A program made the position numbers and the translations under genes. Positions 29,283 to 41,841 of a stretch of DNA of 64,000 nucleotides are shown here, piece after piece. The stretch is taken from NCBI GenBank assembly GCA_017410505.1, contig JAFQQR010000043.1, forward strand, positions 25,391-89,390, read 5' to 3'. The notes below the pieces were generated by a model that ran no database searches, was not told where the DNA came from, and saw only the letters and a list, made by a program, of their open reading frames with translations. Origin of the DNA: Clostridia bacterium (lineage in GTDB: Bacteria; Bacillota; Clostridia; TANB77; CAG-508). Position 1 is the stretch's first letter; each line of letters begins with the position of its first letter.

Positions 29283-29315
29283 ATATTACAAAAATATTAC
29301 AAAAATATTACACTT
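29283..29315 (+). repeat. three phased 11-bp direct repeats (ATATTACAAAA) upstream of the Tad-like operon
   Basis: The ATATTAC cores start at 29283, 29294 and 29305, exactly 11 nt apart. Confidence 0.5.
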
Positions 29316-29347
29316 ATATTAAGTTTTGGTTTTAAGAGAATATTTTG

Positions 29348-29376
29348 TTGATTTAAGTATAGATTTGATGTAAAAT
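29348..29376 (+). promoter_or_regulatory. candidate promoter of the Tad-like operon
   Basis: TTGATT, 17 nt, TG-extended TAAAAT. Confidence 0.45.
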
Positions 29377-29467
29377 GAAATAAAGATTATTTTGAAAATA
29401 AAAATAAAAGTTATCCGTAAAATACTGTGCTTAAGCGGTTAACTTAAATTAAAAGGAGGAATTGGCA

Positions 29468-30553
29468 ATGGCAACAAATCCAATGCAAAGAAAAGCAAGA
29501 AATTCATTTTTATTAGGTATATTAGTTACCCTAATAGTAGCAGGAGCTATAATAGCATTTTTAATTATACAATTGAAAAATTACAAAGAAAAAGAGGAAG
29601 AAGAACAAGCAAATAGTGTAAAAGTATGGGTGTTATCACAAGATGTAATATCTGGACAAATAATAACAACAGATATGTTAACACAACAAGTAACAAATAA
29701 AAATTTAGTTCCAAGTAATGCTATAGGGGATATGTCTATATTGTCAAACTATTCCTTAGAGGATAAAGAGGGGAATGAAATAATAACAGAATACAAAAAT
29801 AATAAATCTACATTATATTTATCTAAAGAAGGAAAAAAATATGAATTAAAAGAGGAAACTGAAACAGGAAATTATTACATGGAAGAAGATGACGAAAAAA
29901 AATATATAGAATTCACAGAAGTTCCTATAATTGCTAAAGTTGATATGAACAAAAATACAATTATAACAGTAGATATGATTAATAAATCTAATGAAAAAAC
30001 AACGGATGATTTAAGAAAACAAGAATACAATATGCTTGTATTACCATCTCAATTACAAACAGGAGAATATATAGATATAAGATTATCACTACCTTCAGGA
30101 CAAGACTATATAGTTGTCTCTAAAAAACAAGTAGAAATACCACAAGTTGGAGGAATAGATGTTGAAGATTCTATTTGGGTAAAAATGGCAGAAGATGAAA
30201 TAATAACAATGAATAATGCTATAGTTGATGCTTATAGAATATTAGGTTCAAAATTATATGTAACAACATATACAGAAGCAGGGACACAAAATGCGGCTAC
30301 ACCAACATATGTACCAAGCAGAGAAGTTGCATTATTAATACAAAGTGATCCTAATATTATAGAAACAGCTAGAAATGAATTGATAGCAAGATATAATAAT
30401 AATGCTAGTACAAGAAATGACGTATTAAATCCATCAATAAACAGTAATGGAGAAGATGGAGATGAAAATCTTAAAACAAAAGTAGAAGAAAGCATAACAG
30501 ATTCTAAAGAAAATAGAAAAGAATATCTAGATTCTTTAGGAGGAGATTATTAA
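29468..30553 (+). CDS. CpaB/RcpC-like pilus assembly protein (N-terminal TM plus SAF-like domain)
   Basis: TM helix followed by VKVWVLSQDVISGQIITTDMLT..V....VP.NAI, the SAF-domain pattern of CpaB. First gene of the operon. Confidence 0.65.
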   Translation: MATNPMQRKARNSFLLGILVTLIVAGAIIAFLIIQLKNYKEKEEEEQANSVKVWVLSQDVISGQIITTDMLTQQVTNKNLVPSNAIGDMSILSNYSLEDKEGNEIITEYKNNKSTLYLSKEGKKYELKEETETGNYYMEEDDEKKYIEFTEVPIIAKVDMNKNTIITVDMINKSNEKTTDDLRKQEYNMLVLPSQLQTGEYIDIRLSLPSGQDYIVVSKKQVEIPQVGGIDVEDSIWVKMAEDEIITMNNAIVDAYRILGSKLYVTTYTEAGTQNAATPTYVPSREVALLIQSDPNIIETARNELIARYNNNASTRNDVLNPSINSNGEDGDENLKTKVEESITDSKENRKEYLDSLGGDY

Positions 30554-30575
30554 AAAATAAAAAGGAGAGTTATAT

Positions 30576-31268
30576 ATGAGAAAAATAGGATTTATAGGAG
30601 CTTATGATAAAACTGATATGCTATTAAATATAGCAAAAATATTAACGACATTAAAAAATAAAGTATTAATTGCAGATTCAACAATAAATCAAAAAGCAAG
30701 ATATATTGTACCTGCAATAAATCCTACAGTATCATATATAACTTCTTTTGAAGATATAGATATAGCGATAGGATTTAACAGCATAGAAGAAATTAAAAAT
30801 TATACTGGAATATCAGAAGAATTACCATATGACATAATATTAATAGATGCAGATACTGTTGAAAAAATAGAAGGATTTGAACTTGAAACAGCAAATAAAA
30901 ATTATTTTGTAACATCATTTGATGTATATTCTTTAAAAAGAGGTATAGAAATTTTAAATGGATTAAAAGTCCCAATTAATTTGACAAAATTATTATTTGC
31001 TAAGGAAATATTAAAAGAAGATGATGATTACTTAAATTTTCTTGCTGTAGGGCACAAATTGAAATGGGATGAAGAAAAAATATATTTTCCAATCGAAAAT
31101 GGAGATTTTGATGTTATAGTTGAAAATCAAAGAGTACAAAAAATTAAATTTAAAAAATTAAGTATCCAATATAAGGATAATTTAAGTTATATTGCGCAGC
31201 AAATATTGGATATAGATGACGATTTGAAAGTTAGAAAAGCTATAAAAATAATTGAAAGAGGAGTATAG
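30576..31268 (+). CDS. ParA/MinD-fold TadZ/CpaE-like protein with a lost Walker A
   Basis: IGFIGAYDKTD replaces the KGGxGKT P-loop. Walker B-like YDIILIDAD is retained. Confidence 0.5.
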   Translation: MRKIGFIGAYDKTDMLLNIAKILTTLKNKVLIADSTINQKARYIVPAINPTVSYITSFEDIDIAIGFNSIEEIKNYTGISEELPYDIILIDADTVEKIEGFELETANKNYFVTSFDVYSLKRGIEILNGLKVPINLTKLLFAKEILKEDDDYLNFLAVGHKLKWDEEKIYFPIENGDFDVIVENQRVQKIKFKKLSIQYKDNLSYIAQQILDIDDDLKVRKAIKIIERGV

Positions 31269-39598: not shown

Positions 39599-39624
39599 CT
39601 GTAAAATAGGTAGGAGGAAAATAA

Positions 39625-40155
39625 ATGGAAGATACACTAATATCAGTAATAGCAATAGCATTAGCAGTAATTTTAATGTTTGTATTTCCATTGATGACAA
39701 TGTCAGATAGAGCAGATGATGTTGCTCAATTGACAGTAGAAGTTGCTACAACAGAATTTGTAGATGAAATAAGAACTACAGGGAAAATAACTCCAGATGA
39801 ATATAGTAAATTTTTAGAAAATATAGGTTCAACAGGAAATACCTATAATATAGAAATGGAAATAAAAATACAAGATGAAAATCCAGATAGAAAAATAACA
39901 ATGGTAAGTCGAGGGGAACAAATAGGTGAAAATGCTTATTATTCAATATATACTTCACAGATAGAAAATGTGTTAAATGCAGATTCAGATAATATATATA
40001 AATTGAAAGAAGGAGATATTATATCGGTTAGTGTAAATAATACAAATCAAACTTTATCTCAGCAATTGAAAAACTTTTTCTATACTGTAATTGGAAAAGA
40101 TACATACACAATAGCTGCATCACATGGAGGAAAAGTAACAGCGACAGGAAAATAA
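39625..40155 (+). CDS. Tad-locus accessory protein, M(G/E)DT family, paralogue B (176 aa)
   Basis: MEDTLISVIAIALAVILMFVFPLMTMSDR... Shares TGK(L/I)T, STGNTY, IGEN.YYS, LKEGDI and ASH.G.VTATG with paralogue A. Confidence 0.55.
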   Translation: MEDTLISVIAIALAVILMFVFPLMTMSDRADDVAQLTVEVATTEFVDEIRTTGKITPDEYSKFLENIGSTGNTYNIEMEIKIQDENPDRKITMVSRGEQIGENAYYSIYTSQIENVLNADSDNIYKLKEGDIISVSVNNTNQTLSQQLKNFFYTVIGKDTYTIAASHGGKVTATGK

Positions 40156-40168
40156 AAGTCAATAAATG

Positions 40169-40200
40169 TAGCTTGTAATGAAAAAATTACAAGCTATTTT
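40169..40200 (+). terminator. intrinsic terminator after the paralogue pair
   Basis: Stem tagcttgtaat / attacaagcta plus tttt. Confidence 0.55.
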
Positions 40201-40284
40201 GCAATAAGGTATTTGTAAGTTAAGAAATTTTTAAATTTTTAAATTTACAATGAGCGAGCAAAGCGAGCGAAAGGAAAGAGAATT

Positions 40285-41841
40285 ATGAAATTACAAAGTT
40301 TAGCAGTTATGTTTATAATATTAATTTTGCCAATATCATTAGTTTTAGCTTCATATACACAAAATAGAATTGAAACACTTAGTTTACAATCTACATATGA
40401 TTCAAAATTAGATGATGCGACATATGATGCTTTAAAAGCATATCAATTAAATAGTTTTAATAGTGAAACATCTGATTTGACGAACTCAAAAATGAGAGAT
40501 ATTAATGCATCTGTAAATACATTTTTTAATTCAATGTCGACAGGTTTTTCTTCTTTAGGATATACAAAAGAAACACTACAAAATTATGTGCCAGCACTTG
40601 TTTATACAATGTATGATGGATATTATATTTATTCACCATATATTAATACATGGGATAGTGAGACAATAGATAAATATAAATCAGAATATCAATCATTTAA
40701 AAATGGAGAGACACTTTATGGATTAAAACCTTATGTATATTATAGTTGTAGGTATGTAAAAGATAAAATAGATGTAGTAATAACATATTCTTTAGATAAT
40801 TATATACAGATTCAAGGTACTATTAATGGTGATACAGTAAGTAGATATGGGTATTTGCTAAACAATTTAGAAATGAATGAAGATGGTAGTATAACTTATA
40901 ATGGGGTAAAAATTGACGCAGAAAAAGGAGAAAAATTGGAAGAATACATATATTTTGATGGAAATTATGATAAGCTTCCATATATTAAGAAAAATGGAAT
41001 AAAATATTATGCAAAGGATGGAAAAGTTTTTTATGTTCTAAATGGAAAATCTATGGATCAAGCAGAAGTAAGTGAATCAGAGATATCAACAAATGAAAGT
41101 GCAATAAAATATTATAAAGAAGCTTATGAATTAAAAGAATTTATGAAAAAGTATGGATTAGATAAATTAACAACAAATGATATTTATGATGTAGATAAAA
41201 CAGGTAATAGTGAATATTATAAAATTAATGGAACAATATTTGATTTTGATAATATAGAATCAGAAACATCAAATTTTAATACTCATCGAATAGATGTAAT
41301 AAAACATTCAATAGAAAGAAATTTATCAGTTGCTATATCAAATTTTAATTATTATTCAGGAGTAAGTGTAGATTTTCAAATGCCAAAACTTAAAGATTCT
41401 GACTGGGATAAAATTATGGATAATATATCTATTATTAGTTTTTTACAAGGTGTTAAAATTGGAGGAAAAATATATAATGGTTATTCAATAATAACAAATA
41501 CAAAAAATGAAGATATTGTAATGGAAGATTCAATATATATAAAAACAAAAGATAATGTTTTACATAGAGTGAAGGACAAAAAATTAAATATAGATGATGA
41601 GACGATAGGAGTATATAATATTAATGTAGAAAGAAGAAGTTATCAAGATACAGATGGAAATACTAAATACTATTTTCCTTTATCTGGAACATTATCATAT
41701 GATTCAATAGTGACACAGAATGAGGTTTCAGATGCCAAATTAACAGATTATTTTAAGGATAAACCAGTTTTAGCAAAGCTTTATTATACCGCATTAGGAA
41801 GAGAAAGATATGGACTTTATAGACCGAAATTAGAAATATAA
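40285..41841 (+). CDS. 518-aa N-terminally anchored extracellular protein adjacent to the Tad-like locus
   Basis: N-terminal TM (LAVMFIILILPISLVLA) and a large Tyr/Asn-rich body. No recognisable family. Confidence 0.55.
   Translation: MKLQSLAVMFIILILPISLVLASYTQNRIETLSLQSTYDSKLDDATYDALKAYQLNSFNSETSDLTNSKMRDINASVNTFFNSMSTGFSSLGYTKETLQNYVPALVYTMYDGYYIYSPYINTWDSETIDKYKSEYQSFKNGETLYGLKPYVYYSCRYVKDKIDVVITYSLDNYIQIQGTINGDTVSRYGYLLNNLEMNEDGSITYNGVKIDAEKGEKLEEYIYFDGNYDKLPYIKKNGIKYYAKDGKVFYVLNGKSMDQAEVSESEISTNESAIKYYKEAYELKEFMKKYGLDKLTTNDIYDVDKTGNSEYYKINGTIFDFDNIESETSNFNTHRIDVIKHSIERNLSVAISNFNYYSGVSVDFQMPKLKDSDWDKIMDNISIISFLQGVKIGGKIYNGYSIITNTKNEDIVMEDSIYIKTKDNVLHRVKDKKLNIDDETIGVYNINVERRSYQDTDGNTKYYFPLSGTLSYDSIVTQNEVSDAKLTDYFKDKPVLAKLYYTALGRERYGLYRPKLEI

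Follow-up and report, generated by a model that had tools for sequence, protein, structure and literature searches.

The 64-kb window analyzed here, that is, the whole 64,000-nucleotide stretch of contig JAFQQR010000043.1 from a Clostridia bacterium of the order TANB77, carries an operon of 13 co-directional open reading frames (ORFs), g1 to g13, on the + strand at 29468-41841 (the first ORF would begin at 29462 without start correction). The genes encode a CpaB-like protein, two ParA-fold proteins, a CpaF-type ATPase, a 692-aa polytopic membrane protein and eight proteins with one hydrophobic helix each, which is the content that an earlier note, made from the sequence alone, had described. 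Judged by gene order, protein sizes, transmembrane (TM) topologies and host group, this operon is the Tad-like pilus cluster published for TANB77 (Kim et al., Nat Commun 2024, PMC11680825). Our analysis goes beyond the published account on three points: the subunits have a conserved and leaderless N-terminus, no peptidase gene lies nearby, and copies of the operon occur on plasmids outside TANB77.

The motor gene, g4 (32147..34117), encodes a secretion ATPase of 656 aa, which opens with an N-terminal TM anchor (residues 6-24) and a family-specific N-domain of ~250 aa. It scored above the Pfam cut-off for T2SSE (PF00437; 28.1 vs 24.9 bits). Its top NCBIfam model was the TadA-family model TIGR03819 at 34 bits, ahead of ComGA, VirB11, PilT, TrbB, and GspE, the VirB11 and TrbB models reaching 16-18 bits. 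Among PDB sequences, it matched Caulobacter CpaF only (8rkd and 9e24; E 4e-10, residues 273-542), and there was no VirB11 or SpoIIIAA chain among its matches at E<=0.01. This bore out the earlier view of the motor as a Tad/CpaF relative, which a grouping with VirB11 or SpoIIIAA would have contradicted. Residues of the Walker A (G384, K385), Asp-box (E406, E410), Walker B (E452), and His-box (H478) motifs were invariant or nearly so in homologues down to 31% identity, G384, K385, E410, E452, and H478 being strictly invariant in the family. Among homologues clustered at 50% identity, considerably more than 100 clusters retained both the TM helix and the N-domain over the entire length. These sequence features show a hexameric-type CpaF/TadA ATPase whose catalytic residues are intact and which an N-terminal helix of its own anchors in the membrane. 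At the level of sequence, g4 is the only operon protein with a firm link to Tad.

Signals for the first three genes were fainter. g1 (29468..30553; 361 aa from the ATG that bears a ribosome-binding site, RBS) has an N-terminal TM helix at residues 16-34 and the start of a SAF-like domain, and is described as CpaB/RcpC-like. Its match to the model TIGR03177 (pilus_cpaB; E 1.1e-6) stayed far below the cut-off and was limited to residues 20-92, in the TM helix and the first part of the SAF region. The g1 family profile retrieved no RcpC/CpaB among PDB sequences and gave coiled-coil stathmin noise only. Related loci were collected by scanning the ATPase alignment over one genome per GTDB species, which yielded 80 loci, and g1 homologues were present in 79 of them; those on plasmids (see below) carry the annotation "SAF domain-containing protein." g2 (30576..31268) is probably a degenerate protein of the ParA/MinD fold, TadZ/CpaE-like, without a canonical Walker A. 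It had no relevant Pfam or NCBIfam match, its family profile matched MinD (4v02) weakly (E 0.0018), and only G8 and K12 were invariant, the Walker A motif being lost. The second degenerate ParA-fold protein, encoded by g3 (31271..32131) and also TadZ/CpaE-like, gave CbiA at E 0.045 and a weak profile match to the ParA-family structure 3ea0 (E 0.0011), with Soj and Get3 weaker still; its Thermobacillus homologue is annotated as ParA. Altogether, scans of all 13 proteins against Pfam, NCBIfam, and PHROGs returned the ATPase, the weak CpaB signal and no other relevant match. Of the families that the earlier note proposed to search for, T2SSE matched above its cut-off, the CpaB and CbiA signals were weak only, and T2SSF, Flp_Fap, and TadE went unmatched.

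The gene following the ATPase, g5 (34150..36228), encodes a polytopic membrane protein of 692 aa with eight hydrophobic segments, which is the presumed platform. It had no Pfam match, and T2SSF (PF00482) was found neither in g5 nor in 18 homologues, even at E<=10. Its family profiles retrieved nothing relevant among PDB sequences (a lone, irrelevant ClpC match at E 0.43), hhalign of the g5 profile against Rhizobium TadB and TadC was negative, and aligning the two halves of g5 with each other by hhalign revealed no internal repeat. An AlphaFold2 (AF2) model was unusable (predicted local distance difference test score, pLDDT, of 44), the alignment being restricted to homologues of 74-93% identity. 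We regard g5 as a putative platform because Kim et al. report, for their 693-aa protein with 8 TM segments, a Foldseek likeness of its halves to TadC and TadB (PMC11680825).

All eight remaining proteins, g6 to g13, have one N-terminal hydrophobic helix. Four of them are paralogues that start with MENAS/V-K/N/D-AL and continue into that helix, and we refer to them as the MENAS family of pilin-like subunits: g6 (36244..36954; 236 aa, N-terminus MENASKALVMAGG) and g7 (36965..37408; 147 aa, N-terminus MENASNALVMAGG), each preceded by an RBS, g9 (37985..38413; 142 aa), a candidate for the major subunit, and g10 (38442..39053; 203 aa, beginning MENAVDAL). An iterated hidden Markov model search over the related loci gathered 348 family ORFs in 73 loci, and two to five MENA-type genes were counted per locus in the 59 loci where g5 and g13 are both present. 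At the N-terminus, M1, N3, and A7 were invariant, and E2, A4, K6, L8, and A11 nearly so. Pairwise identity was 58% over residues 1-28 vs 22% over the remainder. Such a distribution of conservation is that of type IV pilins, but here, as far as the sequences tell, it lies at an unprocessed N-terminus. The features of a class III pilin leader were missing from the MENAS proteins, which have no Gly at position -1 and carry their Glu at position 2, not 5.

Start sites pointed in the same direction. In a count that included g8-type ORFs, the maximal ORF began exactly at the Met of M-E/D-N-A in 309/352 family members, with no in-frame start upstream; elsewhere, this Met was internal. A Shine-Dalgarno sequence stood 4-18 nt before the conserved ATG in 260/270 MENA-type genes (96%), vs 12% at random positions. 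The four window paralogues themselves begin exactly at the M-E-N-A-x-K-A-L consensus. Because there is no upstream in-frame start and the Shine-Dalgarno sequence sits at the conserved ATG, no room is left for a leader peptide. The suggestion of leaderless subunits, put forward as a possibility in the earlier note, is now strongly backed by these start-site data, which argue that MENAS subunits are synthesized without a leader peptide.

We then considered what these proteins resemble. No Pfam family for pilins, Flp, TadE/G, or class III signals matched the small proteins of the window or 118 MENAS family members, in keeping with the claim that the substrates lack known prepilin motifs. Nor did the small proteins hit any well-characterized non-pilin family in Pfam. 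g9 had 7089 homologues, none of them named and none with a Pfam domain. Its AF2 model, built on 73 sequences, was confident (pLDDT 86.6); it predicts a helix over residues 2-35 and, after it, a small alpha/beta domain made up of a helix-strand-helix unit and a beta hairpin at the C-terminus. Foldseek against the PDB gave this model no fold match at E<0.9; the best E was 0.97, and no pilin was among the matches. As a profile, the MENAS family met calmodulin-like noise only among PDB sequences (E 0.17). Incidentally, the segment that follows the TM helix (Q..FN..F..Y.G....G..V..L.N; about residues 40-75 of g9, window 38100-38210) had a non-significant likeness to calmodulin EF-hand 1 at this E of 0.17, and apo-calmodulin was also among the weak Foldseek matches of the g9 model.

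The other small proteins are of different types. g8 (37475..37906) is a small bitopic protein with a basic N-terminus, MKKLAIFS..., and is 143 aa long from its corrected start. We placed this start at 37475 and not at the listed 37427, given an AGGAAGG 8 nt upstream of the ATG and homologues that begin with MKK; the size then equals that of protein 934 of Kim et al. (143 aa). g11 (39068..39598; 176 aa) is a bitopic protein of an "FP...ERxDD" family and a presumed minor or tip subunit, and g12 (39625..40155; 176 aa) is its paralogue, 55% identical. The link to DUF4320-type families proposed in the earlier note proved weak: DUF4320 matched g11 at E 2e-4, below the cut-off, and of 39 members of the g11/g12 family one matched, also below the cut-off. 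g13 (40285..41841; 518 aa, N-terminus MKLQSLAVMFIILILPISL) is bitopic with a large extracellular part and is the counterpart of "pilin 938" of Kim et al. It had no Pfam or PDB sequence match, and its family profile against the PDB came back empty. The TadE/TadF/TadG families (PF07811, PF13400) gave no Pfam match in 39 members of the g11/g12 family or in 29 members of the g13 family, and the g11/g12, g13, and MENAS profiles showed no significant alignment with Rhizobium TadE/TadG by hhalign. The N-termini of g13 and Rhizobium TadG did align in register, at a non-significant E of 0.11.

Homologues of the last genes have a modular make-up. C-terminal modules on g11/g12 homologues included dockerin type I (four members, best E 2.4e-17), PKD, Big_13, Laminin_G_3, and ALK/LTK glycine-rich modules, and one g13 homologue carried Flg_new (Listeria-Bacteroides) repeats. 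Certain g11/g12 homologues are two to three times longer, for example, L070:17948-19378, L078:16767-18491, and L079:15039-16604. Dockerins fused to pilin-like proteins would point to cohesin-bearing docking partners. By their domain content, these g11/g12/g13 homologues are reminiscent of minor pilins with a modular build in other type IV filaments, and they support a role at the surface.

We searched for the processing enzyme and for conventional pilins in the 64-kb window, in the flanks of the 80 related loci (reaching about 10 kb from the ATPase gene in each direction), and in 12 kb around four plasmid loci. Neither the window nor the flanks of the 80 loci contained an ORF with the G.GD.K motif of A24 peptidases, and no such peptidase was annotated in the four plasmid loci. 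Three candidate polytopic ORFs outside the operon in the window were not A24 peptidases according to Pfam. Likewise, there was no Flp-like or GFxxxE-like ORF in the window (ORFs of at least 30 aa) or in the flanks of the 80 loci. The statement that no A24 peptidase gene lies in or next to the locus thus extends to 84 loci, within 10-12 kb, and a canonical flp or tadV, which would have spoken against the earlier reading, was absent from the window and from the flanks of the 80 loci.

The published cluster matches the window closely. Kim et al. found a stretch of 10-14 genes in 122/129 TANB77 species and annotated it with AlphaFold and Foldseek; their reference cluster consists of proteins 927-938 of HRGM_Genome_2725, CAG-245 sp000435175 (PMC11680825). 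It begins with CpaB (358 aa), a TadZ-like (231 aa) and a CpaE-like protein (280 aa), both COG1192 ParA-like, and a TadA/CpaF of 640 aa with one TM helix. The 693-aa protein comes next, and then six "pilin-like" proteins of 143-237 aa, each with one TM helix and undetectable homology, and protein 938 of 621 aa, whose N-terminal 25% has a TadE/PilV-like structure (PMC11680825). Gene order is the same in the window, and sizes agree (Kim et al. vs window: 358/361, 231/230, 280/286, 640/656, 693/692, and 621/518 aa), as do the TM topologies, the ensuing run of one-TM proteins of 143-237 aa, the large last protein, and the hosts, all low-GC gut Clostridia known from metagenome-assembled genomes (MAGs). 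The window has 13 genes vs 12 because of an extra g11/g12 duplicate. The operon can therefore no longer be called an undescribed variant, as it was in the earlier note: the same cluster was published in 2024 (PMC11680825), and Gram-positive tad-like loci free of prepilin motifs were noted in 2011 (PMC3244431). The text of Kim et al. does not mention leader peptides, a prepilin peptidase, or the conserved MENA N-terminus (PMC11680825).

All 80 related loci came from MAGs of uncultured gut Clostridia, including Clostridium sp. CAG:575, CAG:389, and CAG:1219 and Candidatus Merdicola, and the operon was conserved across them. The ATPase of Ca. Merdicola, which belongs to CAG-508, the main TANB77 family, was 80% identical to g4. 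Kim et al. call the cluster exclusive to TANB77. In contrast, we found clear homologues on plasmids of Bacillales and Clostridium. The ATPase core was 54-73% identical on plasmids of Thermobacillus composti, Paenibacillus, Alkalihalophilus pseudofirmus, and Lysinibacillus, and 40-46% identical on plasmids of Clostridium botulinum and C. argentinense. Four of these plasmids were read, namely T. composti pTHECO01, P. polymyxa pPPM1a, A. pseudofirmus pBpOF4-01, and C. botulinum pFWSKR40E1 (loci L081 8551-23170, L083 8538-22040, L084 8775-22178, and L082 9597-22750). The whole operon was present in three of the four loci; in the C. botulinum plasmid, a homologue of g2, the first ParA-like gene, went undetected. 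Gene order ran from the SAF protein through two ParA-like proteins, the TM-anchored ATPase, and the membrane protein of ~690 aa to a MENAS-family gene and g11-/g13-type genes, and the MENAS N-termini read MSTNASKAL, MGENARKAL, MNNASSAL, and MDSVTKAI. After the operon came a GGDEF cyclase in all four loci, and an SLH/stalk-domain protein with a giant DUF5704 protein in three. On these sequence comparisons, the operon is not confined to TANB77.

Another C. botulinum plasmid, pBT-22100019, holds a separate Tad-like locus (L086 6831-13797), where an RcpC/SAF protein and a T2SSE ATPase of 468 aa are encoded along with two membrane proteins that carry no annotation and a number of ORFs 57-160 aa in length. 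Pfam detected no T2SSF, Flp, or TadE in this locus and gave no match for its membrane proteins, so that no bridge from g5 to T2SSF was gained.

Within the window, the operon is compact. Intergenic gaps from g1 to g13, taken from listed ORF starts, were 22, 2, 15, 32, 15, 10, 18, 78, 28, 14, 26, and 129 nt, the g7-g8 gap becoming 66 nt once the g8 start was corrected. A GGAGG-like RBS lay immediately 5' of the listed start in 12/13 ORFs, g8 being the exception. Upstream, a + strand intergenic region (29123..29467, sequence read) separates g1 from a divergent gene for a small acid-soluble spore protein (SASP) and would hold the promoter and 5' leader; an Rfam scan of this leader found no family at E<=1 and no riboswitch. 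Promoter-like sites were no more frequent than chance allows in DNA of 26% GC (116 vs 112.7 expected from shuffled sequence). The operon is closed on the + strand by a terminator-like hairpin (41849..41877), a 13-bp stem followed by a T run directly after the last stop. Two internal elements were noticed: a sigma-70-like site, TTGAAA-17-TATAAT with the TG of an extended -10 (11/12 match), at 37430-37458 just 5' of the corrected g8 start, and an 11-bp inverted repeat at 40169-40196 inside the 129-nt g12-g13 gap. From their positions, both are possible points of internal regulation of the operon.

The neighborhood is one of housekeeping and sporulation genes. On the 5' side lie era, recO, the ribosome hibernation factor gene hpf, and the divergent alpha/beta-type SASP gene, and on the 3' side spoIVB, which also followed the operon in 44/80 related loci; the alpha/beta SASP and SpoIVB are markers of spore formers. 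GC content was ~24-30% throughout the window, about 27% overall. In spoIVB (41938-43190), a one-base insertion, ATACAA-C-GGTATGAGT, occurs immediately ahead of the catalytic GMSGSP motif, near 43045; the 0 frame stops at 43080, and the intact C-terminus is encoded in the +1 frame. The identical insertion was present at the same site in 4/35 motif-bearing related loci (L001, L005, L026, L044), with the downstream frame intact in all of them, and there was none at that site in the other 31/35 loci, 2 of which break further downstream. Such a pattern may reflect a +1 frameshift that is conserved or programmed, or else a pseudogene common to these loci. Further downstream, a 184-aa ORF (43433-43987) consists mostly of tandem heptad-like repeats (DERLDQVDKRLDQV); it encodes a coiled coil, with non-specific matches to a large number of Pfam families of that type, and another short ORF of coiled-coil character lies behind it at 44021-44356. 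Elsewhere in the window, we noted a transfer-messenger RNA gene within 12959-13314 (187.7 bits) and an S-adenosylmethionine riboswitch at 60466-60573 (76 bits), upstream of the ORF 60654-61814, presumably metK.

Taking these observations together, we think it probable that the locus is a chromosomal operon for a Tad-like (type IVc-like) filament, in which the ATPase and g5 polymerize MENAS subunits with no need for a peptidase. Gene content, the identity of the ATPase, and the leaderless N-termini are plain from the sequence, and we infer filament formation, the platform role of g5, and peptidase independence. In such a machine, the g4 ATPase and the g5 platform would pull the MENAS subunits (g6, g7, g9, and g10) out of the membrane, and these would polymerize, the conserved hydrophobic helix at each N-terminus mediating assembly of a surface filament or else a short pseudopilus. 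By position and topology, g11, g12, and g13 are TadE/G-like; they may prime or cap the fiber and bear adhesive modules, and g1-g3 would serve as CpaB-like and TadZ-like scaffold and positioning factors. Translation of the subunits would begin at M-E/D-N-A-x-K-A-L, so there would be no leader to remove. The machine would then work without a prepilin peptidase because its subunits start directly at that motif. A likely role is adhesion or aggregation in the gut.

Compared with the canonical Tad/Flp systems (A. actinomycetemcomitans tad, C. crescentus cpa), the operon shares a CpaF/TadA-clade ATPase, a putative CpaB/RcpC-like SAF protein, putative ParA-fold proteins of the TadZ/CpaE type, a polytopic partner encoded beside the ATPase, and subunit genes within the operon. 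It differs in having no Flp pilin (G/XXXXEY) and no TadV/CpaA peptidase found at the locus. T2SSF is undetectable by sequence, with one presumably fused 692-aa protein in place of TadB and TadC, and the ATPase has a TM anchor and an extra N-domain. The subunits, of 140-240 aa with a globular domain, contrast with helical hairpins of 40-60 aa, and there is no secretin, as expected of a monoderm. Closer in one respect are the Gram-positive tad-like loci of the "no Flp_2" group of Imam et al. 2011 (C. kluyveri, C. cellulolyticum, C. bolteae, and D. hafniense), which likewise lack a recognizable class III signal peptide and whose genes other than tadA are distant from other tad genes; a tadV homologue was reported there, however (PMC3244431), whereas none was found at the window locus. 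Archaeal type IV pili, Epd pili, and archaellins, which the literature counts among the relatives of Tad, have subunits laid out like the g9 model, with a globular domain behind a hydrophobic N-terminal helix of ~35 residues. Their class III signal peptides, however, are cut by PibD, FlaK, or EppA, and no fold or sequence match was obtained here.

Several points weigh against a peptidase-independent filament. The filament is unseen, and Kim et al. assayed recombinant protein 938 only, on dendritic cells (PMC11680825). The model of g9 is without a structural match to any solved pilin. The platform candidate g5 has, in all comparisons made, no sequence similarity to T2SSF, TadB, or TadC, no internal repeat, and no usable model. 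The TadE/TadG likeness of g11-g13 is non-significant by sequence, which leaves a topological resemblance and the Foldseek result of Kim et al. on protein 938. Finally, an A24 peptidase is possible elsewhere in the genome, beyond the 64-kb window and the inspected flanks.

The subunit fold predicted for g9, unlike that of pilins, also bears on an alternative in which a Tad-derived machine makes no long pilus and instead drives a short pseudopilus or piston, in the manner of the type II secretion system and Com pseudopili, for the secretion or wall display of large adhesins. We judge this unlikely, though some points favor it: large extracellular proteins (g13, and the DUF5704 and SLH proteins on plasmids) always stand at the 3' end of the operon, and an anchored ATPase with a presumed fused platform is unlike dynamic Tad pili. 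Set against this are the several subunit paralogues with pilin-like conservation and the adhesin modules fused to g11/g12-type subunits, which suggest display on a fiber; a long and a short fiber are not distinguished by the data.

A conventional Tad pilus, with a small flp gene for the major pilin, a TadV/PilD-type peptidase encoded elsewhere, and the operon proteins as accessory or minor components, seems to us rather improbable. Pilin and peptidase genes may sit outside the biosynthetic operon (PMC3244431), and the DNA inspected amounts to 64 kb of this genome and ~10 kb on either side of the ATPase gene in relatives. Yet the window held no Flp- or prepilin-like ORF of at least 30 aa, while the operon itself supplies four to five subunit-like paralogues per genome with a strictly conserved N-terminus that offers neither a Gly/Ala cleavage site nor space for a leader. 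Moreover, the self-contained plasmid copies in four genera are likewise without flp and tadV.

The setting of homologous operons on large plasmids might suggest an apparatus for DNA transfer, acting in mating-pair adhesion or as a conduit. On pTHECO01, a gene for a VirD4-type coupling protein precedes the operon by ~7-8 kb and a replication-relaxation gene precedes it by ~5 kb, a transposase gene and others lying in the interval; a replication-relaxation gene is also near the operon on P. polymyxa pPPM1a, and the best NCBIfam model of the ATPase bears the name "TadA family conjugal transfer-associated ATPase." We nevertheless hold a conjugation-associated role to be very unlikely, since the carrier plasmids are typed as non-mobilizable, the operon has no VirB4, VirB6, or relaxase, and in TANB77, it is chromosomal and single-copy, amid the housekeeping and sporulation genes era, recO, hpf, SASP, and spoIVB, with no transfer genes. 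A sporulation-linked channel or feeding tube of the SpoIIIA kind, to which the SASP gene directly upstream and spoIVB directly downstream (and in 44/80 loci) might point, is scarcely credible, as the ATPase matches CpaF and not SpoIIIAA, the gene set is unlike spoIIIAA-AH, and the plasmid homologues have no sporulation neighbors. The SpoIIIA-like and VirB11 readings were both rejected on the TadA-family best NCBIfam model and the CpaF-only PDB matches.

Beyond the window, we put forward more tentatively, as a proposal that could well prove wrong, that the operon represents a Firmicutes-wide family of type IV filaments without a prepilin peptidase, characterized by leaderless subunits, an anchored CpaF-type ATPase, and a fused platform. 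In this family, Glu2 would take the place of the contact between Glu5 and the N-terminal amine of processed pilins. The family would be chromosomal and near-universal in TANB77 and plasmid-borne in Paenibacillaceae, Bacillaceae, and Clostridium. The cluster marks an abundant, uncultured order of the human gut, and a link between one of the encoded proteins and cancer immunotherapy response has been reported (Kim et al., PMC11680825). If the proposal is true, the family would break the rule that type IV filaments have four universal parts, pilin, peptidase, ATPase, and platform, and would be its first exception. The plasmid copies in culturable Thermobacillus, Paenibacillus, Alkalihalophilus, Lysinibacillus, and Clostridium make this question testable without culturing TANB77.

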